Virus record (IMG/VR): IMGVR_UViG_3300003267_000167
Location: 1-54,190 of that record
Source of the DNA: a virus
Lineage: Duplodnaviria; Caudoviricetes
Length of the DNA: 54,190 bases
Direction: 5' to 3' (one strand)
Shown here: positions 21,768 to 47,759 of the stretch, piece after piece
Position numbering within the stretch: position 1 is the first letter of the stretch
Layout: each line of letters starts with the position of its first letter
The notes under the pieces: generated by a model
Database searches by the model: none
Told to the model about the DNA's origin: nothing
The model's input: only the letters and a program-made list of their open reading frames with translations
Translations under genes and position numbers: made by a program

Positions 21768-22298
21768 ATGAAAGAAAGACTAAGGAAGATTTACGAACTA
21801 GCAACGCGCGGCGTAGGAGGCGAGCGTGAGAACGCTCAACGATTACTTGAGCGGCTTTTGGCGGAGCACAACTTAACTATTGAAGACCTGGCCGGCGACG
21901 AAAAGAAGCTTTATTACTTCCGATATTCAGAGGGATGGGAAAAGAAGTTAATACTTCAGATTGTGGCCAAGGTAACAAACGTAAGCACTATTGAACCTTG
22001 GGTGCGTAAGGGCTGGCGAAAAGCGCGCGGCTTTGAACTGACGGCGGCGGAGTTTGCGGAGTGCCAACTACTGCTTGAAGAGTACCGCAAGGCATACCGG
22101 AAAGAGTTGGAACGCCTTTTCAGTGCATTCGTTCAACGTAACCGGATTTTTGGGGATGGCAAGGCCGACGAATCCAACACGACGCCGGAGCAATGGGCGG
22201 AGCTTGAGAAAGTCCTAGCGATGGCGCGCAGCCTTGATGTGGTCCCGATACCGCGCAAGCGCCTTGTAGAAGGCATATCAGAGGGGGTAGAGATATGA
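21768..22298 (+). CDS. DUF2786-like protein
   Basis: LRKIYELATRGVGGERENAQRLLERLLAEHNL N-terminal motif. Confidence 0.7.
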   Translation: MKERLRKIYELATRGVGGERENAQRLLERLLAEHNLTIEDLAGDEKKLYYFRYSEGWEKKLILQIVAKVTNVSTIEPWVRKGWRKARGFELTAAEFAECQLLLEEYRKAYRKELERLFSAFVQRNRIFGDGKADESNTTPEQWAELEKVLAMARSLDVVPIPRKRLVEGISEGVEI

Positions 22299-25200
22299 AT
22301 AACACATGGCAACCAATTATGGCCGCGCTTCGCTATCTCGCCGGCCTTTGCGACGGCGCGCAGTCGGAAGACGGCCAAGGCTTCAATAAACCCGACTCTT
22401 TGCGCTGCAAACGTTGGGCGGCGCTCGAAAGCTTGAACGAACGCCAGGCGCGCGACGCTTACGACCGTCTCCGCAAGTACACGGCGCAGCTTGACGCGGG
22501 CGGGATAGACTTCACCAAGCTGCCCGTGCCGCCAAACGAGCGGTTGCAGGCGTCGGACCTGATACGGCCGAACGCCGAACAGTCCAAGCGGCGGGACACG
22601 GACGCCCGCGCGATCCGGGCCGGGAAAGACGCCGAAGGGGATCACTTTCAACTTTCCTGGCCGTATTCCGACGTTGCCGCATTGCTTGAGCCGATGAAAG
22701 ACCATTTCACGGCGCGGCGGTACGTGCAGCAACCCTACAAGCATTGGCGCGTACCGGCCGACTACCGCGCCGCGCGCCTGATGGAGTTCGGCGTTGCGTA
22801 TGACTTTGAAATTTCGCCGGAGGCGTGCGCCTTGTTCGACTCCATCACCATCCCTGACGCCTTGCCCGAAGGCGAAAAGCCCAAACACCCGGACCGCATC
22901 ATCAAGCGCGATCTCTTTCGCCCGGAGCGCAAAGGGAAAGCGCCGAAAGAGGGCATCGGCATTTATTTCGATTACGTGCCGGCGATTCACGCGGCCGTCA
23001 AGGAAATGGTCTCGCCGCAGTATTTCGGCGAAGGCGCGCGGCATTGGGTCGTCTCGCTCGATTCCGCCGCCGCCGTCGCCAAGCTCGCGGCGGAGTTCGG
23101 TTTCAACGTCGAACCGGAGACCCGCGCACTACTCGAAAGCGAAGCCGCCAAGGCGGACGCGGCCGCCAGCCTGGCCGCCAAGCGAAAGGCCGTCTTGATG
23201 AAGGCGGCCGAAGATATCCCGCGCGGCAACTTCGGCGGCAAAACGCCGCGCGATTATCAGGCGGCGGGCGTCAGTCGGATGCTTGAGGCCGGGCGCAGCA
23301 TCCTGGCCGACGATATGGGGCTGGGGAAAGGTCAACCCGCAAGCGGCAAAGTTGCGACGCCTAACGGCTGGCAGATGATTGGTACTCTTCGGCCGGGGGA
23401 TTATGTTATCGGGTCAGATGGCAAGCCTGTTAGTGTGCGCGCCGTTTACTTGCGCGGCGTACTACCAATCTTCAAAGTAACTTTTTCGGATGGCTCAAGC
23501 TTAGATGTAGACGCCGACCATATTTGGACCGTCAAGGACCACAACACACACCATAGGGGCGGAGATTGGTACACGATGACCACACGCGAGCTTATGCTAA
23601 AGGGTCTAAAGGATGGCAACGGTAACAGGAAATACCGTATCCCGATGGTAAAGCCCGTAATCTTTGACCATCAGGACTTACCTTTTGATCCGTACCTAAT
23701 GGGCGTCTTCTTAGGGGATGGAAGCTTTAGCAGCGGGTACAACTTCAACATCTGTACCGGAGATGAAGCCGTACCCGCCGAATGCATGCGCGTGATGCCG
23801 CGCGGCGCGAGTCTTGAAAGGATCGAACCGAAAGAGCGCGCTGTCTATTGGAAGCTTCGCGGATTTTCGCGGCCTCTCTTTGAATCGCTTGGGCTGCTAG
23901 GCTCAAAGGCTGAAACCAAGCAAATTCCCTGGCAATACATGCACGGATCGCCCGACCAAAGACTAGCCCTGTTACAAGGCTTGATGGATACAGACGGCAC
24001 GGCGAGCTTAGATGGTTGCGTGTCTTTTTCGTCGGCAAGCTCAAAGCTCGCGCGTGGTGTTATTGAGTTAGTTCAATCTCTCGGAGGTACGGCGCGGCTT
24101 AGCCTGAAACGTGCGCCAAAGTTTAGCTATAAGGGCGAACAGAAAACCGGGCAACCGTCATGGATCGTAACGCTAGCAATGCCGGAGAGGATGAATCCTT
24201 TTCGGGCTTTTGCGTCTCGCTATAAAGAGCGGACGAAATACCCGCCGCAACGGCTAATCGAATCCATTGAAGCTTACGGCCAAGATGAGGTTGTATGTAT
24301 TTCGGTTGACGCGCCCGACTCGCTTTATGTAGCAGAGAGCTACATCGTTACCCACAACACGTTTGAGGGCATGCTGTGGGCAAGGTGCTACCAACGGGCG
24401 TTCGGCGCGCACGTCTTCATCGTCTGCCCGGTTGCCCTAATGGGCGGATGGATCGAAGAGGCGGCCGCGTGTCACGTCCGGGCGGAGGTTTATTCATGGG
24501 CGAAAGTGCCGCCGCCGCCTTCGTCGCCCTTCGTGCTGATATGCGACGAAGCCCACTATGCACAGTCCATTAAAAGCCAGCGAACGCAAGCCGTCCTAGA
24601 GCTATCGGAAAGCGAGCATTGCCTTGGGGTCGTCATGGCGACGGGGACGCCCATGCGCGGCGGCCGGCCGGTTAATATCTTCCCGCTACTGAAGGCGGTC
24701 AAACACCCCTTGGCGCGCAATAAGTCCAAGTTTGAGGAAAGATACTGCGCGGCGCATCAACGCACGGTCCGCACGGGCGGCCGGACGGTCAACATTTGGG
24801 ACACGACCGGCGCGGCGCACCTTGACGAATTGATGCGGGAGATTGCGCCGCAATTCCTACGCCGGACGAAAGAGCAAGTGTTGAAAGACTTGCCGGCAAA
24901 AACGATCCTGCCCAAACCCGTGGACGTGGACGCCGAAGGCATGGCGATTTATCAGGAAGCTTTCAATAAAGCCCAAGCGCAATATAACGACCGGCTGGCA
25001 AAGGGCGAAATCAAGGAAGGCGCGGAGGCGCTTGTCTTATTGACGCACCTAAAACGCGCGGCCGCGCTCGCGATGGTCAAACCGGCGATTGACCTGGCGG
25101 ACGAAGTAATAGAGCAAAAGCGCAAGGTCTTGATGTACTCGGAATACCCGGAGGTCTGTGAAAAGATCGCGGCGCATTACCGATCGCAAGGCGTCGGCGC

Positions 25201-25630
25201 GGAAGTCCTAACCGGCCAGGTAAAGGCGGAGGACCGCGACACGTCGGTTAAACGTTTCCAGTTTGGCGCGTCGCGCGTCTTTTGTCTGACGAAGGCCGGG
25301 GGCGTCGGCCTGACGTTGACGGCCGCGTCTGACGCTTTCTTAGTAGATCAGCCTTGGATGTGGGATGACGTCGCGCAGATCGTTGACCGGCTACACCGTA
25401 AGGATGCCGTCATGGCGGAGCGGATCGAAGCCGGCCAGGCCATGCCGGTCAACGCCTATTTACTGTCCGGCTTTGAAGTCAATCAGAAAATTCAAGCGCG
25501 GCTTTTTGACCAACGGCGGGCGCTTGGGAAGGTCATGGCCGGCGACCGGCGCACGATGCGGGGCGTTCAAAGCGTCCACGATATAGCCAAGGAAATCGCG
25601 CATGAACTATTCGGAGGGCAAAACAAATGA
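22295..25630 (+). CDS. SNF2-family (HARP/SMARCAL1-like) helicase interrupted by an intein
   Basis: RDYQ, LADDMGLGK|T, DEAH, TGTP, LRRTK, GGVGLTLTAA, QIVDRLHR motifs; HARP-like N-terminal repeats. Confidence 0.9.
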   Translation: MNNTWQPIMAALRYLAGLCDGAQSEDGQGFNKPDSLRCKRWAALESLNERQARDAYDRLRKYTAQLDAGGIDFTKLPVPPNERLQASDLIRPNAEQSKRRDTDARAIRAGKDAEGDHFQLSWPYSDVAALLEPMKDHFTARRYVQQPYKHWRVPADYRAARLMEFGVAYDFEISPEACALFDSITIPDALPEGEKPKHPDRIIKRDLFRPERKGKAPKEGIGIYFDYVPAIHAAVKEMVSPQYFGEGARHWVVSLDSAAAVAKLAAEFGFNVEPETRALLESEAAKADAAASLAAKRKAVLMKAAEDIPRGNFGGKTPRDYQAAGVSRMLEAGRSILADDMGLGKGQPASGKVATPNGWQMIGTLRPGDYVIGSDGKPVSVRAVYLRGVLPIFKVTFSDGSSLDVDADHIWTVKDHNTHHRGGDWYTMTTRELMLKGLKDGNGNRKYRIPMVKPVIFDHQDLPFDPYLMGVFLGDGSFSSGYNFNICTGDEAVPAECMRVMPRGASLERIEPKERAVYWKLRGFSRPLFESLGLLGSKAETKQIPWQYMHGSPDQRLALLQGLMDTDGTASLDGCVSFSSASSKLARGVIELVQSLGGTARLSLKRAPKFSYKGEQKTGQPSWIVTLAMPERMNPFRAFASRYKERTKYPPQRLIESIEAYGQDEVVCISVDAPDSLYVAESYIVTHNTFEGMLWARCYQRAFGAHVFIVCPVALMGGWIEEAAACHVRAEVYSWAKVPPPPSSPFVLICDEAHYAQSIKSQRTQAVLELSESEHCLGVVMATGTPMRGGRPVNIFPLLKAVKHPLARNKSKFEERYCAAHQRTVRTGGRTVNIWDTTGAAHLDELMREIAPQFLRRTKEQVLKDLPAKTILPKPVDVDAEGMAIYQEAFNKAQAQYNDRLAKGEIKEGAEALVLLTHLKRAAALAMVKPAIDLADEVIEQKRKVLMYSEYPEVCEKIAAHYRSQGVGAEVLTGQVKAEDRDTSVKRFQFGASRVFCLTKAGGVGLTLTAASDAFLVDQPWMWDDVAQIVDRLHRKDAVMAERIEAGQAMPVNAYLLSGFEVNQKIQARLFDQRRALGKVMAGDRRTMRGVQSVHDIAKEIAHELFGGQNK
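23330..24358 (+). mobile_element. Intein (343 aa) with LAGLIDADG homing endonuclease, class 3 signature
   Basis: Inserted in Walker A GK|T; ends VTHN|T; LMGVFLGDG and LQGLMDTDG; W-C-T triad. Confidence 0.92.
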
Positions 25631-28681: not shown

Positions 28682-30910
28682 ATGGAATATGGCGAATTTT
28701 TAGCGTCGAAAGCGGCGCGGGTTGAGGACGCGGGGAAAGACCCGCAGTCAATTAACCGGCTTTTATTCACATGGCAGGCCGATATCGTCAAATGGGCGAT
28801 CAAGCGCGGGCGCGCGGCGATCTTCGCGGACTGCGGCATGGGCAAAACCCTGATGCAAGTCGAATGGGCGCGACAAATGGGCGAGCGCGTGCTAATCGTC
28901 GCGCCGCTCTCCGTCGCGCAGCAAACCATCGAAGAGGCAAAAAAGCTGAACGTAGAGATCGTCTACAAAGCCGCGCCGGATGATTCAGGCGGCATCTGGA
29001 TTACGAACTATCAAAAGCTTCATAAGTTTGTCGGCGTGCCATTTGATGCCATCGTGCTTGACGAATCTTCGATCCTCAAAAGCCTGGACGGCAAAACGCG
29101 CACGCTCTTACTTGAGCAATTTACGACCATCCCGTACCGCCTTTGCTGCACGGCGACGCCAAGCCCGAACGATCAGACGGAGCTAGCCAATCACGCGGAG
29201 TTTTTGGGCGCAATGTCGCGCGTTGAAATGCTCGCCACTTTCTTCGTCCACGACTCCGACCGGGCAGGGTCAAACGGCTGGCGGCTGAAAGGGCATGCGA
29301 AGGATGACTTTTGGCGATGGGTTGCACAGTGGGCCGTGTACATTCGCAAGCCGAGCGACCTAGATCACCCGGACGGCGATTTCATCCTGCCGCCGCTCAA
29401 CGTCCGCCAGGTACAAGTTGAATCGAACTTCATCCCAGACGGAAAGCTATTCCCAGACATTACGGCGGGCATTACCGGCCGCACGCAGGCGAGGCGTCAC
29501 ACGATGGACGCGCGCATCAACCGGGCGGTAGAGATTATCAAGAAATCAAAAGGGCAGTGGGTTGTGTGGTGCGGATTGAACGACGAAGGCCAGAAGATCG
29601 CCAAGGCGCTAGGACAGAAGGCGGCACTCATCGAAGGATCAACCGACGATGAATCACGCATCACGCTTGAGTCATGCTGGCGCGCGGGGAAGGTCAAAAC
29701 GCTCATCACGAAGCCGGGCATGTTCGGCTTCGGCCTCAACTGGCAGCACTGCCATCAAGTCATGTTCCTTGGGTTGGGGGATAGTTTCGAGCAGTGGTAT
29801 CAGTCCATCCGCCGATGCTGGCGATTCGGGCAGAAGTCGGCCGTTGATGTGGTCGTTGTTACGTCCGACGCGGAAATCAGCATCGTCGAAAACGTACAGC
29901 GCAAAGAGCAGCAGGCGTCCGAAATGGCGGCCGGCATCGTCGCCGCGATGAAGGACGCCCAAATTGAATCGGTACTTGGTAAACTTTCACGAAAGGATCA
30001 TTACACGATGAAAACGAAAAAGGCGGAGCAGTGGGAAGTCAAAATGGGCGATTGCGTGGAACGGGTCAAAGAGATCGAGACGGGCAGCGTCGGGCTGTCA
30101 ATCTTCAGTCCGCCGTTTAGCCAGCTTTATACGTATTCGGCCAGCGATCGCGACATGGGCAACACGAAAGATCACGCGGCATTTTTCGATCATTTTCGAT
30201 TTTTGATCCCTGAGCTACTGCGCGTGACGATGCCGGGCCGGCGTTGCTGCGTCCACGTTCAGCAAGTCGCACAGACGCTCGTCAAAGATGGCGTGATAGG
30301 GTTGTACGACTTCCGCGCCGACGTGGTGCGCGAGTTCGTCAAGGCGGGATGGGTTTACGATGGCGAAATTGTGATTGACAAAAACCCGCAAGCGCAGGCC
30401 ATCCGCACGAAGGCGAAGCAATTAATGTTCGTGCAAAAGAATAAGGACAGCGCATGGAGTCGTCCCGCGATGGCGGATTACATCCTGCTCTTTCGCTCGC
30501 CAGGCGCTAACGCCCAACCTATTACGCAATCGGCGACCAGTGGCGTCACCAATGAAGAATGGATCAAGTACGCGCATCCAATCTGGTACGACATCAACGA
30601 ATCCGACACGCTGCAATATACGAGCGCGCGAGAGCATCAAGACGAAAAGCACATCTGCCCGTTGCAGCTCGAAACCATCCGCCGATGCGTCCGGCTGTGG
30701 TCGAATCCGAATGACTTAATCCTTGACCCGTTCGCCGGGATCGGGTCAACCGGGCATATCGCAATGGAGCAGGATCGGCGATTCGTCGGGATCGAACTGA
30801 AGGAGTCGTATTGGAAGCAGGCCGTTAAAAACCTTCAGAACGCGGTCAAACAGCAAGCACTCTTCACGCCAGGAAGGGAAGCGCATGAATCCGTCGCCGT
30901 CCCCGCTTGA
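28682..30910 (+). CDS. SF2 helicase fused to an N4/N6 DNA methyltransferase
   Basis: DCGMGKT, DESS, TATP, QSIRRCWRFGQ; then SPPF and LDPFAGIGST, GIELK. Confidence 0.9.
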   Translation: MEYGEFLASKAARVEDAGKDPQSINRLLFTWQADIVKWAIKRGRAAIFADCGMGKTLMQVEWARQMGERVLIVAPLSVAQQTIEEAKKLNVEIVYKAAPDDSGGIWITNYQKLHKFVGVPFDAIVLDESSILKSLDGKTRTLLLEQFTTIPYRLCCTATPSPNDQTELANHAEFLGAMSRVEMLATFFVHDSDRAGSNGWRLKGHAKDDFWRWVAQWAVYIRKPSDLDHPDGDFILPPLNVRQVQVESNFIPDGKLFPDITAGITGRTQARRHTMDARINRAVEIIKKSKGQWVVWCGLNDEGQKIAKALGQKAALIEGSTDDESRITLESCWRAGKVKTLITKPGMFGFGLNWQHCHQVMFLGLGDSFEQWYQSIRRCWRFGQKSAVDVVVVTSDAEISIVENVQRKEQQASEMAAGIVAAMKDAQIESVLGKLSRKDHYTMKTKKAEQWEVKMGDCVERVKEIETGSVGLSIFSPPFSQLYTYSASDRDMGNTKDHAAFFDHFRFLIPELLRVTMPGRRCCVHVQQVAQTLVKDGVIGLYDFRADVVREFVKAGWVYDGEIVIDKNPQAQAIRTKAKQLMFVQKNKDSAWSRPAMADYILLFRSPGANAQPITQSATSGVTNEEWIKYAHPIWYDINESDTLQYTSAREHQDEKHICPLQLETIRRCVRLWSNPNDLILDPFAGIGSTGHIAMEQDRRFVGIELKESYWKQAVKNLQNAVKQQALFTPGREAHESVAVPA

Positions 30911-33565: not shown

Positions 33566-33724
33566 GCTTGAGGCGCGCGGCCGCGCCGGTTTGCCGGATG
33601 CGGCGAAAGCTAGACCCTGCGTTAGTCCGTAGCCAGTCGGACACGCGGCCGCGCGCTAAGCGGGCGTCCGGCCTCTTCAACGGCCGCCCGCTTTTACACC
33701 TTCAACCGTTCCACACGAAACCCG

Positions 33725-34195
33725 ATGGCAGGACACAAGCGACAATTCAGCGAACAGACGATTAAGCGCCTGATGAAAGAGGGGCGCATTAAGGACAACG
33801 GGGCGACCGTCAAAGAGCGAGATCATTTCTTCTTTTCGATACGCGCCGACATTCCGCCGTCCGTGAATCACTACACCGAGCTTGGGCGCGACGGCGCGCG
33901 AAAGAAGACGCCGAACGCCATCGCGTACCAAGAAAAAATAGGCAAGATCGCCAAGGCGGCCGGCTGGATTCTGGCGGAGGGGAAGATGCAAGCCGATGTG
34001 TACGTCTACGCCGACGAAGGCCGGATTGACCTTGATAACGTCTTGAAGTGCCTGGCCGATGGGTTGCAGGGCATTTGCTACCGGGACGACGCGCAGATAT
34101 GGAAATGGACAGTTGAGCGGTTGATGAGGCCGCCGACGGAACGAAACCCCTATATTGTTATTAACCTATCCCGTTATTACGCGGACCTGTCCTAG
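33725..34195 (+). CDS. rusA: RusA-like Holliday junction resolvase
   Basis: PPSVNHY, RIDLDNVLKCLADGLQGICYRDDAQI. Confidence 0.88.
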   Translation: MAGHKRQFSEQTIKRLMKEGRIKDNGATVKERDHFFFSIRADIPPSVNHYTELGRDGARKKTPNAIAYQEKIGKIAKAAGWILAEGKMQADVYVYADEGRIDLDNVLKCLADGLQGICYRDDAQIWKWTVERLMRPPTERNPYIVINLSRYYADLS

Positions 34196-34197
34196 TT

Positions 34198-34824
34198 ATG
34201 ATTTATCTTTCCGGCGCATTGAATAGAAATCAAATGGGGAAACGCCCGGACGTTGGGATCATGTTGGGGTATCGGGAGGGCAGCATCGCGCACGGCTGGC
34301 GGAGGCTAGCGGGAATCCATTGGGCGGCGGATAACGGTTGCTTTACTAACCCTAACCTTGACGTTGATAAGTACCTGGCGTGGCTTGAAAAGCTCAAGGC
34401 GGTTCAAGGTACATGCCTTTTTGCGACCGCGCCCGACGTAGTAGCGGACGCGGCCAAGACATGGGAGCGGTCGCGCGACGTGTTGCCGAAGATTCGGGCG
34501 CTTGGCTATGACGCGGCTTTTGTCGCCCAGGACGGCCAGGAAGATCGCGCGCTTGATTGGGATCGCTTTGACTGTCTTTTTATCGGCGGTTCTACGGATT
34601 GGAAATTATCACAGCATGCGTTTTGGCTGTGCCGGGAGGCGGCCAGGCGCGGTAAGTGGGTACACATGGGCCGGGTTAATTCTTTCCGGCGTTTACTGCG
34701 CGCCCGATTCGCGCGGTGCAATTCGGCGGACGGGACGCAGCTAGCATTCGGTCCGGATCAAGGCTTTAAAAAGCTTTGTGAATGGCTTGATTTTATTCAA
34801 CGGCAACCAACCTTGGACTTTTAG
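34198..34824 (+). CDS. TGT/DpdA-like protein (putative deazaguanine DNA transglycosylase)
   Basis: AADNGCF, APDVV, FVAQDG, FIGGST, VHMGRVN, SADGT match the TGT-barrel motif order. Confidence 0.6.
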   Translation: MIYLSGALNRNQMGKRPDVGIMLGYREGSIAHGWRRLAGIHWAADNGCFTNPNLDVDKYLAWLEKLKAVQGTCLFATAPDVVADAAKTWERSRDVLPKIRALGYDAAFVAQDGQEDRALDWDRFDCLFIGGSTDWKLSQHAFWLCREAARRGKWVHMGRVNSFRRLLRARFARCNSADGTQLAFGPDQGFKKLCEWLDFIQRQPTLDF

Positions 34825-34825
34825 C

Positions 34826-35170
34826 ATGATTTTCACCCTAAACGAATATCAGATGGCCGCCGACGAAGAGGCCGGCAAACTGACGCCGGCCGCGGCGCTT
34901 CAAAACCTTATGACCGCTAGCGCGGCCTTATTGCCTTATGTGTTGAGCGCGGAGGCCGGGACGCTTGGCGAAGCCGACGAAGAGGCCATGACCGGGCCGC
35001 TTGATGAGACCCGGCGGGAGGCCATGACGGTCCTGGGCGCGGCACTGTTTAACGTCGCGGTACTGGCCAGGCGGCTTGACATTGGCTTGAACCGCGTCGG
35101 GGAGTCCAACCTTGAACGCATCCGCTACGCCTCACAGTCCGGCAAGCTCCGGGCCATTCAGGGGAAGTGA
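34826..35170 (+). CDS. Degenerate MazG-like protein
   Basis: TLNEYQ...LGAALFNVAVLARRLDIGL..V.ESNLERI; acidic catalytic residues replaced. Confidence 0.55.
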   Translation: MIFTLNEYQMAADEEAGKLTPAAALQNLMTASAALLPYVLSAEAGTLGEADEEAMTGPLDETRREAMTVLGAALFNVAVLARRLDIGLNRVGESNLERIRYASQSGKLRAIQGK

Positions 35171-35340: not shown

Positions 35341-35618
35341 GATATACCTTGACCTTCAACCGGCTTTTGTCCGTGGTCGCCAACCCTCCGGACCGGGCTA
35401 CGTGCATGTATTGCCAAGTGCGCGCGAAGCCGGGCGAGTCCTGGCGCGCGGCGCGTGTGCCGATCAACCCCGACGAACCGGGCGGCGATAGCGTCATGGT
35501 CCCCGTGTGCGGTCCCGTGTGCGAGACTCTATTCAAGGCGCACCCGCGGGCGGAGGTCGTAATTGACGACTTGATTGCCCAAGCCAAAGACGGCCGGGGC
35601 GAAAGGCGGGAGCGGTGA
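35337..35618 (+). CDS. Small Zn-binding hypothetical protein
   Basis: CxxC...CxxxC; translationally coupled. Confidence 0.6.
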   Translation: MRYTLTFNRLLSVVANPPDRATCMYCQVRAKPGESWRAARVPINPDEPGGDSVMVPVCGPVCETLFKAHPRAEVVIDDLIAQAKDGRGERRER

Positions 35619-36034
35619 CTTGGCGGAGTGAAGCGGCGGCCGTCGTTCGTCGTGTTATCGCCAAGACGGGAAGGGAAGACATGGCCGCGCTCCGGCGCGC
35701 AATCCGGGCGGCGTACCCCTTCGGCGAGCGGGCGCACTACCCGTACAAAGTTTGGTGTGAAGAGGTCCGCCGGCAATTAGGCCAGGCGGCCGACCCGCCC
35801 GCGGACATGACGGTTGCCGACGCCCTGGCGGTCGTGCGGGAGATCAAGGCGGCCGGCTTCGTGTGCGGCGACCGCTCGCGCTTCGCCAGGCTGGACGCCA
35901 CGCTCGAAAAGGCCGCGGCCGCCTTCAAGGAATGCCAGGCCAGCGTAAGCGGGTCGGACGCCCGCTATTTGCGGAACCTGCACAAACACTGGCGGCCGAA
36001 GCCGGCGCTTGACGCCGACGCCGACGCGGCTTAG
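35615..36034 (+). CDS. Phage hypothetical protein
   Basis: AYPFGER.HYPYKVW.EEV motif; GTGA overlap. Confidence 0.65.
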   Translation: MTWRSEAAAVVRRVIAKTGREDMAALRRAIRAAYPFGERAHYPYKVWCEEVRRQLGQAADPPADMTVADALAVVREIKAAGFVCGDRSRFARLDATLEKAAAAFKECQASVSGSDARYLRNLHKHWRPKPALDADADAA

Positions 36035-36235
36035 ACTCTCGCCAATTCGCAAGAAACGAAGTAACTGATTAGACGGCCGGCATCAATCCTGTGTATGCCG
36101 GCCGTCGCTTTATTAAAAGCCGGCCGCGCCATTGGCCACGCTGGCAACAGTCCCCACAAATCCAGTAGACTACCCGCGGCCATGCGACTCTCTACGCCGG
36201 CCGCAATCGTGCCCCCACTAACACGAGACCGACAC

Positions 36236-36904
36236 ATGGACCGGCTTAACTCTGTGAAACCCTCAAGGCAAGAATCCTTGTTCACGTTGGGCGCGATCGT
36301 CTTGGCTGTGCTTTTAGTGGAGCTTGGCGCGATAGCGATCTCCGCCGATGGCTACATGCCGCATGGCATGTGTTACCTGTGGGAGCCGCGCATGATCGCG
36401 TTGCACCTGGCCGCGGACCTGACGATATGCATGGCTTATTACGCAATCCCCTTCGTCCTGTGGCGATTCATCCGACGCCAGCGCGGGCATGCGGTCAATT
36501 GGATAATCGGTTGCTTCGCCGGATTCATCCTGTTATGTGGGACGACTCACTTAATAGCCTGCGTCACCATCTGGCACCCGTGGTACTGGTTTGACGGCGC
36601 GGTCAAGACGGCGACCGCCATTTTCAGCGTCGCGACGCTGGCGCTACTTTGGCGGATCACCCGGCGGGCGAAACCCTTGCCCGACGTGGAAGAGATTTAC
36701 CGGACGAACGCGGAACTAAGAAGGCGGATCGAACGGTTGCGCGCGACGTACCCGGAGGACCGCGGCATTTTGGAAGAGGACAAGGCGGCCGAAGTGTTGA
36801 GCGGGGCGCATCAGCTTTTAGACGATTACGCCTCTTTGGTCTCCGCGCTACGCGGCCATCCGAAGCCGGCGCAAGTCGGGAAACCCGCGGAGGACGCGCC
36901 TTGA
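36236..36904 (+). CDS. Stand-alone ETR1-like ethylene/Cu-binding membrane sensor domain protein (start uncertain)
   Basis: MPHGMCYLW, D-x6-Y-x2-IP and FILLCGTTH with exact ETR1 spacing; no kinase or GAF domain. Confidence 0.85.
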   Translation: MDRLNSVKPSRQESLFTLGAIVLAVLLVELGAIAISADGYMPHGMCYLWEPRMIALHLAADLTICMAYYAIPFVLWRFIRRQRGHAVNWIIGCFAGFILLCGTTHLIACVTIWHPWYWFDGAVKTATAIFSVATLALLWRITRRAKPLPDVEEIYRTNAELRRRIERLRATYPEDRGILEEDKAAEVLSGAHQLLDDYASLVSALRGHPKPAQVGKPAEDAP

Positions 36905-37395
36905 GCGGATGGCAGCAAGTCCTAGCGGCGATACTTTCCTCCGGCGTCGTTTCGGGCGTGGTCGGCCTCCTATTCGGCCGGAAGCTTGAGGCCGCCAAGG
37001 CGGATAAAGAGCGGGCGGCGGCGGAGGTTGACCGCGCCAACGCGCAGAACGCTGAAGCCAAGACCATTACCGAACTAATGGCCGCCTTCAAGCAGACGAT
37101 GGAAATGGCGCGGGAGTCCGACCAACGCCACCGGGAGACCCTTTTAAAACTGAGCGAGGCCGAAGCCACCCTGGCCGCCCGCGATTCTGTCATTGCCAAC
37201 TTGCGGCGAGACCAGGCGCTTTTAAAAGGGGACACGACGGAGCTACGGGCGGAAGTTACGGGCGTCGCGCTACAGTGCAGCGACCTGGCCGAACAGTGTA
37301 AAAAGATTTTGCGGAAACTGGACAACATCGAGCATGCGGCCGACGCGAGCGGCGCGCACGTCACCCCAACCCCTAACCCTTCGGAGAAGTCATGA
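36901..37395 (+). CDS. Single-TM coiled-coil protein (holin/spanin-like architecture)
   Basis: GGAGG RBS with TTG start overlapping the upstream stop; N-terminal TM then heptads. Confidence 0.7.
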
Positions 37396-39317
37396 GCATT
37401 TCACGTCACCATTTCAGAGTTAGCGAACCGATTGCCGCCTTGGCGTCTTTGGTCTTTGGCCTGTGCGCCTTGGCGATTATCGGCCGGATGGTTTACCCGG
37501 CCGCGGCGCAAGGCCAACCGCAGACCGTCACGTTACAACCGGGTCAAACCCTCATGGTTAAATGCAACGGGCAGCAAGCGGCGGCGGAGTCCGTTGATAA
37601 ATTTAACATGCGGAATAAGTGCGGACCCGGACCGACGCCGACGCCCACACCAACGCCAACCCCAACCCCGAAACCGACACCAACGCCGACGCCGACGCTG
37701 ACACCAACCCCAACCCCAACGCCCGGACCGACGCCGACGCCAACGCCGTCAAACGGCGGCTTGCCGGCACCTTTAAGTCAGTTTGTAGATACGGCCTGGC
37801 CGACCAATCAAACGGGGGTCGTCCGAAAGATTTTGCCGGGCGGGGACTTTCAACAGGCGTTGCAAGACTGCCAGCCGGGCGACGATATAGAACTTGACGT
37901 TTCGGGCGTGTGGACGGGTAACTTTACATTCCCCGCGAAGGCCAACCCGAATAACCAATGGGTCATTATCCGGGCAAGTAACGTGACCGCCACGACCGCC
38001 GCCGCGGGCGCGGTGACGGCCGCCAGGGCGGGGAAGGGCAAGGCGCGGAAAGTGGTCTATTACCGGCCGGCGAAGGGGAAGGCGGCCGCCCGGACGGGCA
38101 AGGCGGTTGCCGCCTTCAAGTCTGCCGGCCAGCGCGTGACGCCGGGCGCGCAAAGCATGCCGGTCATTCAATCGCCCAACGTTTCGGGCGCGTTCTTTAT
38201 GTCCGAAAATTCCGGCTACGTCCGCCTTGTCGGCCTTGAAATGACGTTTACGCCGGCCGCCGCCGCGGACGCGCCCGGCGGTTTTACCGTGTGGCGCGTG
38301 TTGCAACTTGGTTCAACCGACACGACCGACGCGGCGAAAGTGCCGCATCACATCACGGTTGACCGATGTTACATTCACGGGTTGCCGACTAAAAACTTAC
38401 GCCGCGGCATTGAACTTAATAGCAACTGGACGGCGGTAATAGATTCGCAAATCCGTGAGGTCCATGAGGTCGGCGCGGACAATCAGGCCATAGGCGGTTG
38501 GAACGGCGCGGGGCCGTACAAGATCGTTAATAACTATCTCGAAAGCGGCGGGGAGATCGTCATGCTTGGCGGGTCGGACCCGAAGATTGCGAACCAACTG
38601 CCGCGCGATATTGAGGTCCGGCGCAACACGATAACGCGGCCGACCGCCTGGAAGACGGGCGCGATACATTGGGAGGTCAAAAACCTTTTCGAGGTAAAGC
38701 ATGGCATACGCTGGCTAGTGGACGGTAACACCTTCGCGAATAATTGGACCGACGCCCAGGACGGTTACGGGATTTTGTTACGATCCATGAACCAAGACGG
38801 CGGCGAAACATGGTCAATCTCAACGGACATAACTTTTACGAATAATACAATCACGTCCGAAAACGGGATAAACCTGAACGGGTTGGACCCGTACCACCCG
38901 GCGAACCAAATGGCGCGGCTTTTGATCTCTAACAACGTTTGGAACGTGACGGGGACATGGCTAAAGGCGTCGGACTTCATCAATTGCACCTTTGACCATA
39001 ACACGATTAACAACGGCTATTCCGTCACGAACCTATACGCCGGCCTCAAGCCCAACATGCCGGGCGTTCGATATACTTTCAACATAGCCAACCGCTCCGG
39101 CGGTTATGGCATCTTTGGCGATGCGGTTGGAGAAGGAACGCCAGCCCTTACGACGTACTGGCCGCAAGCGGCCTTGGCGTCCAACGTCCTGACGGGATGC
39201 GCCAACACTGGCGGCCAGTGTAACGGCTACCCGTCCGGCTTTTACTCTTCGGCGTCGTCCGTGCCGGGCGTCGGCGCGGACACGCAGGCAATCACGGCGG
39301 CGCAAAACCGCCCATAA
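37392..39317 (+). CDS. Exported right-handed beta-helix (pectin-lyase fold) protein with Pro-Thr linker
   Basis: Signal/anchor; PT repeat; [40 protein letters not shown]. Confidence 0.8.
37625..37750 (+). repeat. Pro-Thr linker-coding tandem repeat
   Basis: (CCR ACN)n. Confidence 0.9.
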
Positions 39318-39331
39318 CCCGAAAGGTTCAC

Positions 39332-40360
39332 ATGAAAATCAAAACACTCTCCATTTTGTTTCTCGCGGTCTCCGTCACTCTGATAATGCCGGCGCGGACG
39401 CTCGCGCAAGCTTGCGTCCCTCCGGCCTATCAGGGCTTTGCTAATTCCTGCAAGGGGATCAACGCGCGGTGGCTGAATAAAAACGCGGTCAATGACATTG
39501 CGTTTTTTAAGCTGTATTGGGCGGCGGACGGCAAATGCAGCGGGGCCGACAATCAGGGCGTCCCGTGTGATTCCCCCCTGGCGGTCTTGCCGGGATCGGC
39601 GACCAACGCCGGCCGGACCGACCTATACCCTGGCTTTTCGAGTGCCATCACGATCACGCAAACGCTCAACAACGGCCTATCGTGCGCGACGGCGAGCGCG
39701 GGCAGTGTGCCGCACACGTACCCGCCGGACCTTTGCCAAGGGGTCGGCAATCAGCCGCTAGGCGTGGTCAACGCGGCGAACTACCGGAGTCAGGGGACGC
39801 CGGACAGCATCGCGGCCGCCTTCGCGGCCAATATCGCCACCTTTACCGCCTTGGCGTCGGGCTTGCCGCTCCCCTTGAACGTCGGGGGCGTCACGGTCAC
39901 TGTAGACGGGGAACCGGCCGGCATTTTTTACGTGTCACCCGGCCAGGTAAACTTTCTTGTCCCCGCGGACCTGTCGGCCGGCCTGAAAGTGGTTAGGGTC
40001 GCCAACGCCTCCGGGCAGACCTTCACGGGCGAATACTACCTTGGCGCGCAAGCTCCGGGCGTATTCACGCGCGACTCAACGGGCGAAGGTCCGGCAAGTA
40101 TGGACGTCGGGCCGGGCGGCGCGTATATCAGCTTGTATCCTACCGGCATCAATTCGGCGGCCGTCACCAAGGCGGACATTTTTTTGAGGACGTCAACCGG
40201 GCGTTACCCGGCGCAATACCTTGAAACGCCGGACCCGTCACACCCGGCGCAATTCGTCGGCGCGCGTCAATTGAATTTCGTCAACGTCCCTCTGGACGGG
40301 CAGGCGGCATACCTTGAGGTCGCCGGCTTTACGTCCAATACGTTCACGCTTCGGAGGTAA
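39332..40360 (+). CDS. Exported protein with TIGR03437-like (acidobacterial C-terminal) domain
   Basis: Signal peptide; VVNAANY...SIAAAF...LPL..GGVTVTVDG...FYVSPGQVNFLVP...APGVFT. Confidence 0.8.
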   Translation: MKIKTLSILFLAVSVTLIMPARTLAQACVPPAYQGFANSCKGINARWLNKNAVNDIAFFKLYWAADGKCSGADNQGVPCDSPLAVLPGSATNAGRTDLYPGFSSAITITQTLNNGLSCATASAGSVPHTYPPDLCQGVGNQPLGVVNAANYRSQGTPDSIAAAFAANIATFTALASGLPLPLNVGGVTVTVDGEPAGIFYVSPGQVNFLVPADLSAGLKVVRVANASGQTFTGEYYLGAQAPGVFTRDSTGEGPASMDVGPGGAYISLYPTGINSAAVTKADIFLRTSTGRYPAQYLETPDPSHPAQFVGARQLNFVNVPLDGQAAYLEVAGFTSNTFTLRR

Positions 40361-40361
40361 C

Positions 40362-40580
40362 ATGGACAGTCGGGACCGGGAAGCGATTGACATGGAAGTT
40401 TCCAAGATCGTCGCGATTGAATTGGAACTAAAAACCATTCCGGGGCGCATTCGCGACGGTCTTAACGGGCGAGACTTAGAAGACAAACTTCTAAGTCTCG
40501 CCCTGGCGATTCACAACACGGCGGACAATCTCAAAGGGTTGAGCCGCCCGGAGGATCAACATGCGAACGCAGCGGCTTAA
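40362..40580 (+). CDS. Hypothetical protein
   Basis: GGAGG RBS before ATG 40362. Confidence 0.6.
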   Translation: MDSRDREAIDMEVSKIVAIELELKTIPGRIRDGLNGRDLEDKLLSLALAIHNTADNLKGLSRPEDQHANAAA

Positions 40581-41097
40581 ACGCTTCGGCGTTACTCTCT
40601 TCGTGGTCTTGTTCGGACTCTCGCAATCCGCTTGCGGCGGTCCGACGCTGGCCAGCATCGGGCGCTATATCGGGCCGGTCGGGCAGGGGTTTAACGACTA
40701 CCTTGACCAACTGAAGGCGGCCGGCGAGATCACACAGGAAAACTATGATAAGGCCAAAAACCTTAACTTGCCCGGCAAGGCTAAAGAGGTCGGCGACTAC
40801 CTACAGAGCTTGACCGTTATCAACGCCGGCAACCGGGACGAAGTGTTAGCGGTGATTGACGGCGGCTTGAAAGTCTTTCGGGACGTGTCCGGCCTAGTCA
40901 AGCCGGGGAGCGCGGCCGCCAAGGTCGTCTTATACCTGTCAACCGCCTTGTCCGTGGCGCGGGGCGTCCTGGCGGCCATGCCTGTCAAGCCGGCGTCTTT
41001 CTCGATGAGCGCGAAAGAGGAAGGGAAGCGGCCGGCGGACGTGAAAATTGACTTGCCGCCGCCGCCGCCGGAGGTTAAAAAATATCTTCCGAAATAG
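40561..41097 (+). CDS. Putative lipoprotein
   Basis: Basic N-terminus, hydrophobic stretch, SA-C-GG lipobox-like site. Confidence 0.7.
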   Translation: MRTQRLKRFGVTLFVVLFGLSQSACGGPTLASIGRYIGPVGQGFNDYLDQLKAAGEITQENYDKAKNLNLPGKAKEVGDYLQSLTVINAGNRDEVLAVIDGGLKVFRDVSGLVKPGSAAAKVVLYLSTALSVARGVLAAMPVKPASFSMSAKEEGKRPADVKIDLPPPPPEVKKYLPK

Positions 41098-41108: not shown

Positions 41109-41138
41109 TTGACGCCTTGGCGGACTCCCCTTTAGACT
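41109..41138 (+). promoter_or_regulatory. Promoter with operator overlapping the -35
   Basis: TTGACG-18-TAGACT; CGCCTTGGCGG. Confidence 0.65.
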
Positions 41139-41821: not shown

Positions 41822-41854
41822 GGCGGGGCGTCTAACCAGCGTCCCGCCTTTTTT
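41822..41854 (+). terminator. Intrinsic terminator
   Basis: GGCGGGGCG-loop-CGTCCCGCC-TTTTTT. Confidence 0.75.
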
Positions 41855-45907: not shown

Positions 45908-46342
45908 ATGTCTGAGAATTTCCCTAATGTTTCCCCGTACCAATGGACGCCGAAAAAACAGCAAGCCGCCGTTTTGCTGGCGGAAGGGTTCACGCATCAA
46001 AAGGTTGCCGAACGGGTAGGCGTCACAAAACGCACGATCACCAACTGGCTAGGAGAAATGGAATTTCGCAAGGAAGTGGACACCCTTAGCGTGATGGTCT
46101 CGATTGCCGGCCGGGCCGAACGCCTCCGGATGGCCATGCGCGCCTTCCGTCAGTTTGTTAAAGACGATGGCACGATTACAACGGAAAGAGACGCCCTTGA
46201 CTGGCTCAAATTCGCGCGGGACGAAACGGACGGGATCAAAACCGGCCTTGATGCCGCCTTCGCTAATGCTCTCGCATCTTTCACCGGATCAGGACAAGAT
46301 CGCCTTCGTGAGCCGGACGGCGGCGATTCACCGGGAACGTGA
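45908..46342 (+). CDS. terS: Terminase small subunit (HTH)
   Basis: KKQQAAVLLAEG...VAERVGVTKRTITNW; upstream of TerL. Confidence 0.75.
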   Translation: MSENFPNVSPYQWTPKKQQAAVLLAEGFTHQKVAERVGVTKRTITNWLGEMEFRKEVDTLSVMVSIAGRAERLRMAMRAFRQFVKDDGTITTERDALDWLKFARDETDGIKTGLDAAFANALASFTGSGQDRLREPDGGDSPGT

Positions 46343-47759
46343 AGAGGCCGCCGAACAAGCGAAGGCATACGACGGACGCGCACACGCGCCCAAATTCCGC
46401 GGCGCAAACCTTACGATCCAATCCTACACCGGCCGCGAATGGTTACTGTCCGGACCTTCCGAAACGGGCAAGACCTGGGCGACGCTTTGGCGGCTTGATT
46501 CCCTTCTCCGCGCCACGCCAGGCGCAAAAGCAACCCTACTGAGGAAAGTACAGGCGGACATTCATGGAACTGTGATTGTCACCTGGCAGGCGATACAGCT
46601 TTTGCGCGAAGCTATGGGCGAAGTGCCGGCGCAGGAATACGGCGGACAAAAGCCCAACTTTTACACCTACCCGAACGGCGCGCGTCTTTGGTGCGGCGGC
46701 CTTGACCACGCCTCAAAGATTCTTTCCGGCGAAAGGGATTGGATTTACGTTAATCAGGCGGAAGAGTTGGCCAAGGAAGATTGGGAGACCTTGACCACGC
46801 GCACGACCGGCCGCGGGGCCGTCACGCCGACGCCTATGCTTTTCGGGGACTGCAACCCAGGGGGCGAAGATCATTGGATACAAAAGCGCGAAGATTTAAA
46901 GCTCTTTCACTCAAGGCATGTTGATAACCCTTCGTTGTATGACGACGCCGGCAACATCACGCCGCAAGGCCGCCGGTCAATGGCGACGCTGATGGCCTTA
47001 ACGGGCGTCCGAAAGAAGCGGCTTTATCATGGCCTATGGGTCGGCGCGGAGGGGTTATTCTTTGAGCATTACGACCCGGAGGACACGCGGATTGTCATTC
47101 CGCCGCTTGACTTCCTTCCGGGCGATTGGCCGGTATGGGGGGCGCTTGATTGGGGCCACAAACACCCCTTGGCCTTCGGCCTCTTCGCCGAAGATAACGA
47201 GGGGAACATTCACCTTGTTTGGGAGCATGTCCAAGCGGGATGGCTAATCCCCTACCATTGCCGGGCGATTCGTGAAGGCTTGAAACGCTTCGGCGTTTGG
47301 CCGGAAAAGCTAGAGACGATCGCGGCCGGCCATGACGTGTTCACCACGACCGGCGGGAGTCATTTGGAGGATTTGAAAACCAAGGCCATGCAATTCGCCG
47401 ATTCCAAAGACCCGGTTACGAAGCAAGACAACGGGTTGATTCTGGATTACGCGAACATAGACCGGAAGCAAGGGGCGGCGGAATTAACGCTCCGGATCGG
47501 CAACCCGTCGCCGGGGCTACAGATTGAGCCGACCCTTAAAATTTGGTCACACTGTACGCGGACCGTTGCAACCCTAGCCCGAATGGTACACAATCCGCGC
47601 GACCCTGAAGACGTATTGAAAGTGAACGCCGACCCTCTCACAGCGGAAGGCGGGGACGACGCATACGATATGCTCCGGTATGGCGTCATGGTGAAGGCCG
47701 GCGGCGCTTCCTACGTGCCGGCGGTCGGCGGATCGCGCGGCACCTACCAAACGTTATGA
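46266..47759 (+). CDS. terL: Terminase large subunit
   Basis: GPSETGKT, YVNQAEE, DCNPGG..HWI, DNP, LDWG..HP, DDAYDMLRY. Confidence 0.92.
   Translation: MLSHLSPDQDKIAFVSRTAAIHREREEAAEQAKAYDGRAHAPKFRGANLTIQSYTGREWLLSGPSETGKTWATLWRLDSLLRATPGAKATLLRKVQADIHGTVIVTWQAIQLLREAMGEVPAQEYGGQKPNFYTYPNGARLWCGGLDHASKILSGERDWIYVNQAEELAKEDWETLTTRTTGRGAVTPTPMLFGDCNPGGEDHWIQKREDLKLFHSRHVDNPSLYDDAGNITPQGRRSMATLMALTGVRKKRLYHGLWVGAEGLFFEHYDPEDTRIVIPPLDFLPGDWPVWGALDWGHKHPLAFGLFAEDNEGNIHLVWEHVQAGWLIPYHCRAIREGLKRFGVWPEKLETIAAGHDVFTTTGGSHLEDLKTKAMQFADSKDPVTKQDNGLILDYANIDRKQGAAELTLRIGNPSPGLQIEPTLKIWSHCTRTVATLARMVHNPRDPEDVLKVNADPLTAEGGDDAYDMLRYGVMVKAGGASYVPAVGGSRGTYQTL

Follow-up and report, generated by a model that had tools for sequence, protein, structure and literature searches.

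The virus record IMGVR_UViG_3300003267_000167 of the IMG/VR database, a stretch of 54,190 bases that is referred to in full as the window, carries at 36236..36904 a gene for a protein of 222 amino acids plus stop codon (here P0001), which contains an ethylene-receptor sensor domain of the ETR1_N family with all residues of the predicted binding site in place and lacks the signaling domains to which this sensor is otherwise fused. The ETR1_N domain itself is well known; its kinase-less, phage-borne form is the new part. We favor, at a rough probability of 40%, the explanation that P0001 is a copper-dependent sensor with ethylene as its prime ligand, which would signal in trans via the partner protein encoded immediately downstream and would probably act on a late membrane event. 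An earlier note, made from the sequence alone, had read the gene as a stand-alone, ETR1-type sensor of phage origin, and its claims are taken up with the results that bear on them. All window features described here lie on the + strand.

The ETR1_N protein and its predicted binding site

The open reading frame (ORF) is real and encodes the motifs that had first drawn attention to it, namely MPHGMCYLW, AADLTICMAYYAIP and FAGFILLCGTTH. Its assignment to the ETR1 type was borne out by ORF translation, by the Pfam profile ETR1_N (PF25487), which matches residues 53-145 of P0001 to profile positions 2-94 of 97 (E=6e-30, 103.8 bits at a cut-off of 27), and by a search of the whole record, which recovers the same place at 36392-36670 with 105.7 bits. 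Judged by these scores, P0001 is a true member of the ETR1_N family, far beyond chance. The start codon at 36236 is supported by the alignment with the related protein P0002, which has the same start. An alternative upstream ATG at 36095 was rejected, as it lies inside a strong hairpin and receives no support from this alignment.

The ETR1_N domain (residues 53-145; 36392..36670) was delimited by the Pfam match, an AlphaFold2 model and residue conservation, and comprises three transmembrane helices. Its site residues are D61, Y68, I71, P72, I98, C101, T104, H105, and K124. All seven site positions singled out in the earlier note are present at the spacings it gave (D61+7=Y68, P72+29=C101, and C101+4=H105, with I71 and I98 in register), a correspondence of stated residue numbers and spacing rather than of a pairwise alignment with Arabidopsis ETR1 (AtETR1). 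The ETR1 residues Y32, I35, P36, and I62 are among these seven, and we take them to be ethylene-site positions on the basis of that list or of general knowledge. For AtETR1, seven residues are reported to be needed for ethylene binding (PMC11819568). The numbering of D25, C65, H69, K91, and T68 of ETR1 is given in PMC11819568, PMC13261662, and PMC10266040, the last of which also describes the roles of these five residues. The Azospirillum receptor AzoEtr1 is reported to have D35, C75, H79, and K98, and its residues 1-130 to bind 14C-ethylene (PMC11819568); D61, C101, H105, and K124 of P0001 are spaced exactly like these four residues.

In an alignment of 110 sequences, C46, Y68, F97, C101, G102, W113, T127, and S131 are invariant, and D61, I71, P72, I98, T104, H105, and K124, all present in P0001, are conserved in at least 90% of the sequences. 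A second alignment of 20 sequences, including all viral forms and among them the Maribacter phage protein described below, leaves C46, Y68, F94, F97, I98, C101, G102, H105, and S131 invariant. As pocket and metal residues are thus retained in proteins sharing less than 35% identity, the site appears to be in use, which speaks more for a sensor, or for a protein that is gated, than for a plain membrane protein.

The AlphaFold2 model of P0001 has a mean predicted local distance difference test score (pLDDT) of 83.3 and displays four membrane helices followed by two tail helices. The three helices of the ETR1_N domain are modeled at residues 51-81, 87-111, and 117-144 with pLDDT values of 87-96. 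The hydrophobic helices thus number four and not three: an additional N-terminal hydrophobic helix occupies residues 11-35 (36266..36340) and carries an invariant Glu29, and, according to the alignments and the model, it is found only in a four-member subfamily. Between this helix and the domain lies a PHGMC motif (P42-C46; 36359..36373), predicted to be periplasmic, whose Cys46 is kept without exception by the 110 aligned relatives and by the viral forms. This cysteine precedes helix 1, usually within P-H-G-x-C, and may form a dimer disulfide or a copper entry site.

The tail (residues 146-222; 36671..36901) is helical, as had been claimed, but with some 75 residues and two modeled helices (151-171 and 181-205) it is not short. 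Following the positive-inside rule, it is predicted to be cytoplasmic. It bears the subfamily motif I-x-R-L-(R/K)-x-x-x-P-E, and I165, R167, L168, P173, E174, and R176 are invariant in the four-member alignment. The stand-alone state of the domain was confirmed, as P0001 matches no further Pfam domain and its model ends after the two tail helices; it is consequently no ethylene receptor proper in the sense of a fusion with GAF, PAS, or kinase parts. A fold search of the PDB with P0001 returned nothing at E<=0.001 and a PDB sequence search yielded chance matches only, while a fold search of BFVD produced one significant match (E=2.2e-4), an unnamed viral protein of 289 amino acids, which is the length of the Maribacter phage protein.

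Relatives, other phages, and the partner gene

An exhaustive search with P0001 identified 7,679 representative clusters at E<=0.001. Among the best 150 of these, 134 are longer than 260 amino acids and carry kinase, PAS, GGDEF, or similar parts, and the only end-to-end relatives are P0002 (215 amino acids, 52% identity), P0059 (218 amino acids, 38%), and P0074 (212 amino acids, 39%), with identities of about 37-52%. Twelve of the other 13 short matches were viewed (P0082 was left out), and by eye most look like truncated kinases. The three end-to-end relatives, each found on a single contig of 1.1-3.4 kb, share with P0001 the extra helix with its invariant Glu29, the tail motif, and the key residues except I71, which is Met in P0002. 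Since tail and key residues are retained in three full-length relatives, P0001 is not the unique, decaying fragment of a host kinase that the earlier note had considered as a possible objection. A scan of IMG/VR with the subfamily alignment identified no close relative and one with P0001 alone none that was confirmed; a metagenome scan for relatives returned almost only fused kinases.

More distant kinase-less copies do occur in viral databases, as had been suggested as a check, and the gene is therefore not unique to the window. In a translated search of 50,697 phage records, matches were confined to eight records of the Maribacter phages Molly and Colly. The protein Colly1_63 (289 amino acids, annotated as “hypothetical”) contains ETR1_N at E=3e-16 and is encoded directly upstream of an annotated amidase. 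In the Molly/Colly paper, this amidase is the only listed lysis gene, unnamed proteins with one to four membrane segments are noted near lysins, and ethylene is not mentioned. A profile scan of IMG/VR further revealed 15 ETR1_N loci, of which 11 are kinase-less and encode proteins of 123-160 amino acids: L003, L004-L007 (group A), L011-L015 (group B), and L016. The remaining loci comprise three with an identical kinase of 481 amino acids and one ETR1_N-STAS fusion. The Pfam cut-off was passed by all five IMG/VR proteins tested (L003, L007, L011, L016, and L017). The 481-residue protein (L008-L010, 6004-7443) appears PAS- and kinase-like by eye and is located on three AT-rich contigs of 49-61 kb; the ETR1_N-STAS protein (L017, 5746-6804) is located on a viral contig.

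In three related lineages an endolysin gene lies nearby: adjacent to the ETR1_N gene in Colly, as a GH108+PG_binding_3 gene ending 826 bp upstream of the copy in L011, and as a muramidase+PG_binding_1 gene 1.9 kb upstream in L016; none was recognized in the window. The prophage lysis region of L011 (4285-6874) begins with the GH108 endolysin, which has a C-terminal hydrophobic segment, followed by a gene that resembles an i-spanin and encloses a lipoprotein ORF (lipobox by eye) and by a gene for a membrane protein of 157 amino acids; by eye, the spanin-like pair is thus situated between endolysin and ETR1_N gene. The ETR1_N gene is followed by a small single-pass membrane protein of 61-82 amino acids (seen in L012-L015 and not listed for L011) and by a single-pass helix protein of 108 amino acids; by eye, an integrase lies beyond.

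In a domain tree (76 rows, 109 columns), a starred branch (97) sets apart groups A and B together with L003 and L016, and the window subfamily forms a starred set of its own (98) amid fused sensors of bacteria, a split that suggests at least two phage lineages of kinase-less ETR1_N copies. The tree was computed with LG+G4 rather than the default mixture model, its support values are from the Shimodaira-Hasegawa-like approximate likelihood ratio test only, a long-branch warning applies, and the choice of bacterial rows by likeness to P0001 biases the picture.

The stop codon of the ETR1_N gene overlaps the start of a gene for a single-pass, long-helix protein, as had been observed earlier, though the start codon is TTG and not ATG. 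This partner gene (36901..37395, 164 amino acids) begins within the TGA stop (cTTGA) and is preceded by a GGAGGA Shine-Dalgarno sequence, read directly from the sequence at 36889..36894 within the 3' end of the ETR1_N gene, 6 nucleotides upstream of the TTG. By this overlap and ribosome-binding site, the pair is translationally coupled. The partner has one N-terminal transmembrane segment at residue 6 followed by a tail of 139 amino acids, 33% of which are charged according to a heuristic, and was modeled from the single sequence by AlphaFold2 as one long helix (16-149, pLDDT 87.7). No significant Pfam, PHROG, or PADLOC family was identified for it. The ESM Atlas returned for it only viral hypothetical clusters at 0.92-0.93, with a recognition that stayed below the mark, so that they serve as no more than a lead, and a complex prediction of P0001 with the partner scored 0.00, which counts neither way.

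Recurrence of such a partner was assessed with a rule that requires one membrane segment starting in the first 35 residues and a tail of at least 50 amino acids with at least 28% charged residues and less than 12% Pro+Gly. By script, nine of 12 other loci have a gene that fits this rule in the 2.2 kb following their kinase-less ETR1_N gene; the window partner, with its TTG start, fits as well when evaluated by hand, which brings the count to 10 of 13. Across 11 loci the rule was met by eight of 231 filtered + strand ORFs, and all eight are these downstream genes. A similarly built partner consequently follows the kinase-less ETR1_N gene in four phage lineages, the window and three others. The partners of L011 and L016 match phrog_2658 (“hol-like chemotaxis”) at 1.4e-9 and 3.2e-5, respectively.

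The positive charges that follow the membrane segment of the window partner (R27, K28, K33, K36, and R38) indicate that its helix should be cytoplasmic, unlike that of a spanin. A spanin of the Rz/Rz1 type was rejected on this topology, on the lack of a lipoprotein gene, and on the lack of a spanin match in PHROGs. No genuine lipobox ORF was identified in the region 34.8-41.5 kb, where three pattern matches were judged spurious, being internal starts within P0001 or a 48-amino-acid ORF without a hydrophobic signal. A defense system was likewise dismissed, as the PADLOC scan of four window ORFs gave only weak coiled-coil matches.

A bacterial counterpart of the arrangement exists in metagenome-assembled genomes (MAGs) of Candidatus Sericytochromatia. 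ORF listings of two such loci (L098, 5001-7269; L100, 4980-6880) reveal a protein of 193 amino acids composed of ETR1_N and a coiled coil, with a membrane histidine kinase encoded within a few bases downstream; the kinase of L098 matches PDB entry 7z8n at E=2e-56, and the same stand-alone 193-amino-acid gene is present in a third locus, L099. This split receptor indicates that sensor and output need not share one gene, and that the sensor gene can stand next to that of a membrane-anchored partner.

Module surroundings, phage genome, and likely host

Upstream of the module, a consensus scan identified a sigma-70-like promoter motif, TTGACG-N17-TAGACT (36009..36037). The hexamer pair TTGACG-N16-19-TAGACT is found exactly twice in the 54 kb (36009-36037 and 41109-41138), with none expected from 100 shuffles, and both pairs may be phage promoters read by a host sigma factor. 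The second pair (N17/18) is situated after the gene at 40561-41097. The leader of about 200 nucleotides contains a strong hairpin followed by a U-rich run (36072..36118; -29.6 kcal/mol, z=-4.8, none of 200 shuffles folding as well), which may represent a terminator, an attenuator, or a stabilizer. A search of the leader against Rfam assigned no family (best match E=0.29), and a riboswitch was rejected for want of any such family. Between 36038 and 36235, the promoter motif is thus followed by hairpin and U-run and by the first gene of a long same-strand run, with a 139-amino-acid gene without an assigned function (35615-36034) just before. The order of these elements resembles the way in which lambda arranges antiterminator, late promoter, and terminator; matches to an antiterminator family were not detected.

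The partner gene overlaps by 4 nucleotides with a gene for a 641-amino-acid protein (37392..39317), which has an N-terminal signal or anchor, a Pro-Thr linker, and a right-handed beta-helix domain (matched weakly by Pfam Beta_helix). With this overlap and the shared strand, the two genes are likely to belong to one operon. The beta-helix protein has 1328 homologues, of which the named ones belong to Acidobacteriota/Blastocatellia and some are labeled “TIGR03437 family.” It is followed by a secreted protein of 342 amino acids (39332..40360) with the “Solibacter uncharacterized C-terminal domain” (Soli_cterm; NCBIfam TIGR03437, E=6e-24, 85 bits at a cut-off of 29). These two secreted, host-like genes inside a phage (37392-40360) may be surface- or polysaccharide-acting cargo. 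The strongest intrinsic-terminator-like site found by scanning downstream, a GC-rich stem of 10 bp followed by TTTTTT, is located at 41822..41848, where the transcription unit or units may end.

The window has a CheckV completeness of 54, and all of its large ORFs are on the + strand. A total of 37 ORFs were scanned, 30 against PHROGs, 19 against Pfam, 12 against NCBIfam, and four against PADLOC. PHROGs identified the large terminase (46104-47759), portal, head protease, major head protein, and tail fiber proteins as well as a helicase-methyltransferase, a primase/helicase, Erf, RusA, and the small terminase. The ETR1_N gene is phage-borne, as claimed from the outset: it lies on the same strand as the genes for terminase, portal, protease, capsid, and tail, and the DNA comes from a virus record. 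A tRNA scan of the window found none. Two large fusions were observed, a primase/helicase-like protein of 1111 amino acids (22295-25630) and a 742-amino-acid helicase joined to a DNA methyltransferase (28682-30910).

The predicted soil or rhizosphere setting was confirmed, as the window DNA is present in four sequencing runs of a single study, all of them root metagenomes, with two as possible sources. Across these runs the phage is nearly clonal, as over 8.5 kb it shows two differences, each in a single contig. In run X1, one contig (depth 22, compared with about 60-74 around it) joins 33672 to 35049 and skips 1376 bases that hold the RusA-like gene and a phrog_15826 gene, so that a subpopulation may be without both. 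Three overlapping X1 contigs (14,935, 1,436, and 37,891 nucleotides) would, by the arithmetic of their lengths only, fit a circle of about 54.2 kb, which would make the genome nearly complete despite the CheckV value of 54%.

The host is probably an acidobacterium. This is suggested by the TIGR03437 domain of the 39332-40360 product, by the acidobacterial origin of the named relatives of the beta-helix protein, and by the core identities of P0001, which among 80 genome loci are highest for proteins of Solibacteraceae MAGs (51.5-55.6% over 97-99 amino acids); the best bit scores among these loci go to proteobacterial MAG proteins instead.

Explanations weighed against known systems

Under the favored explanation, P0001 would be a functional, kinase-less ETR1_N protein located in the inner membrane and probably dimeric, with Cu(I) bound by Cys101 and His105, aided by Asp61, and with ethylene or a similar small unsaturated molecule as its probable ligand. 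As it has no output domain, it would have to signal in trans, and the likeliest receiver would be the co-translated single-pass protein with its long cytoplasmic helix (36901-37395), with the third transmembrane helix and the conserved pair of tail helices as the site of contact. The split version of Sericytochromatia, with its adjacent membrane histidine kinase, would work alike. In the phage, the output would most likely concern the membrane late in infection, for instance by setting the time of lysis, which is proposed because related kinase-less copies are situated in or beside lysis cassettes.

Several observations weigh against this explanation. Among the 37 scanned window ORFs no endolysin, holin, spanin, or integrase was recognized, so that the link to lysis, which the earlier note had also drawn, is borrowed from other phages; it would depend on three other lineages and there on gene position. 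The genes following the module encode host-like secreted proteins (beta-helix and Soli_cterm) rather than lysis enzymes. For the window partner no homologue was found at near lengths, and no partner fitting the rule is present in three of the 13 loci (L002, L003, and L004, the last of which ends 936 bp after the gene). Comparison by hhalign of partners from different lineages gave probabilities of 0.4%, 12%, and 1.6%; as far as these profiles can tell, the linkage for whose conservation the earlier note had proposed a search is one of build only, with no detectable homology between lineages. No RNA run is among the listed runs that hold the window DNA. With regard to the ligand, ethylene binding has, according to the account in PMC11819568, been shown for only two bacterial ETR1_N proteins. 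In the 20-sequence alignment, several phage groups have H, G, or N in place of D61 and G or S in place of P72, and the ETR1 mutation D25N is reported to lower ethylene affinity approximately 100-fold (PMC11971883), which suggests that ethylene may not be the ligand for all of them.

The ETR1_N protein might instead itself be a holin- or pinholin-like channel, perhaps gated by its metal/ligand site, with the single-pass neighbor as antiholin or co-holin. Its build would suit this role, as it is small, has three or four helices in the membrane, and ends in a charged cytoplasmic tail, and the minimal viral forms of 123-133 amino acids, which are without a signaling tail, are encoded amid small membrane proteins, either beside endolysins or behind tail genes. 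The position of the window gene, with the RusA/replication genes on one side and the terminase on the other, is the one that lysis genes take in lambdoid phages. Two partners match the “hol-like chemotaxis” family as described above, and the Molly/Colly annotation names no other holin. The rice receptors OsERS1 and OsERS2 are reported to conduct cations in oocytes with a current that is raised by ethylene and for which Cys65 is dispensable (PMC13261662), but this is a single study of full-length plant receptors. P0001, however, has no match to a holin family (Phage_holin_3_6 at E=0.18 and 12.3 bits, below the cut-off of 28.4; none in PHROGs), the best-ranked protein named as a holin in the BFVD search reached only E=0.32, no endolysin lies near the window gene, and the invariant Cys, His, Tyr, and Ile of a ligand pocket would not be expected of a plain hole-former. 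We regard this explanation as unlikely. Also unlikely is the view that the module is cargo (a moron) which alters host physiology or surface, for example exopolysaccharide or biofilm via the two secreted proteins, or which mediates superinfection exclusion. It would account for the module's own promoter-like motif, leader hairpin, and strong downstream terminator, for the acidobacterial type of the two secreted proteins, and for the position of the group B gene at a prophage end beside the integrase, the usual place of cargo; the bacterial ethylene receptors that were studied are moreover reported to affect biofilm and surface behavior (PMC11819568). Yet the same gene is found inside lysis cassettes of virulent-looking phages, no integrase is listed for Molly and Colly, and the window ORF scans, which found none either, leave a lysogenic role unsupported here; PADLOC yields weak coiled-coil noise only, and the module is without a regulatory output domain.

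That P0001 acts as a decoy, forming mixed dimers with host ETR1_N sensor kinases and thereby jamming or locking their signaling during infection, is improbable, and no direct support was found for this proposal of the earlier note. The likely host group does encode ETR1_N fusions (the Solibacteraceae MAG proteins measure 556-574 amino acids and share 51.5-55.6% identity over the 97-99 core residues), P0001 retains sensor and linker helix without the kinase, and ETR1-type receptors are described as working as dimers (PMC11971883; PMC13261662). An identity of about 50% is, however, low for a specific mixed dimer, the subfamily forms its separate starred group in the tree and is not nested in the Solibacteraceae clade, the host itself is only deduced, and the recurrent partner gene, the extra N-terminal helix, and the subfamily tail motif would all be left unexplained. 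A role in copper handling, in which the protein would sense, sequester, or pass on Cu(I) in the inner membrane instead of sensing a gas, appears most improbable. The residues invariant in all viral forms do include C101 and H105 as well as the periplasmic Cys46, close to His43 or His45 and Met residues, while the ethylene-affinity positions D61 and P72 vary in some phage groups. Y68 and I98, however, which line the ethylene pocket according to the residue list of the earlier note, are invariant too, and scans against Pfam, PHROGs, and NCBIfam revealed no copper-transport or chaperone genes nearby. Asp25 mutants of ETR1 are reported to lose copper binding (PMC10266040), but in every studied member copper is described as a fixed cofactor and not as a signal (PMC11819568; PMC13261662; PMC10266040).

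A more far-reaching view would hold that a root phage reads ethylene with a receptor domain of its own and, via the partner or as a ligand-gated pore, times the breach of the host membrane, and that kinase-less ETR1_N proteins form an unrecognized class of ligand-controlled lysis proteins over several lineages, including those of marine Maribacter phages; this is distinctly doubtful. The earlier statement that no phage ethylene sensor has been described was upheld by a literature search, which found no account of an ethylene-binding domain in a phage or prophage, most papers being judged from their listings; where two reviews touch on viruses, it is only to mention that histidine-kinase genes are exchanged with giant algal ones.

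Ethylene receptors are known from plants and two tested bacterial cases, always as a sensor fused to signaling domains, and a kinase-less phage copy with an intact predicted binding site would extend the perception of a plant hormone or gas to viruses. Several phage lineages that are unrelated to one another carry such copies, often with lysis genes as neighbors, and this points to a soil or root cue that may be linked to phage-driven bacterial death. A minimal, naturally isolated ETR1_N domain of 123-222 amino acids would also serve binding and structural work, as no solved structure was matched in the PDB sequence and fold searches, and the cultured Maribacter phage-host pair makes the question testable at the bench.

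Among known systems, the phage quorum-sensing receptors of Silpe and Bassler are reportedly soluble, DNA-binding regulators with known ligands. Like these, P0001 is a phage's own copy of a bacterial-type sensor that may tie an infection decision to an outside chemical cue; unlike them, it is a membrane sensor domain whose ligand and output are only predicted. With the holin/antiholin systems of phages (S105/S107 of lambda; T of T4 with RI and RIII) it shares the small size of an inner-membrane protein, charged cytoplasmic ends, a second small membrane protein, and, in three related phage lineages, the position of ETR1_N genes beside endolysins, whereas it differs from holins in lacking a holin family match and an adjoining endolysin in the window and in having a conserved metal/ligand pocket. 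The “hormone receptor-type ion channels” OsERS1 and OsERS2 of rice belong to the same domain family and illustrate a possible membrane action for a kinase-less copy; unlike P0001, they are full-length plant receptors, and their channel is reported to need the N-terminal Cys4 and Cys6 and not the copper-binding cysteine (PMC13261662). In common with ETR1 of Arabidopsis, SynEtr1 (Slr1212) of Synechocystis, and AzoEtr1 of Azospirillum, P0001 has the ETR1_N domain with three helices, the Cys/His copper site, the Asp, and the Lys bridge. In contrast to all three, it is encoded by a phage, has no GAF, PAS, kinase, or receiver domain, and adds an N-terminal helix and a 75-amino-acid tail of its own, so that its output would have to pass to another protein.

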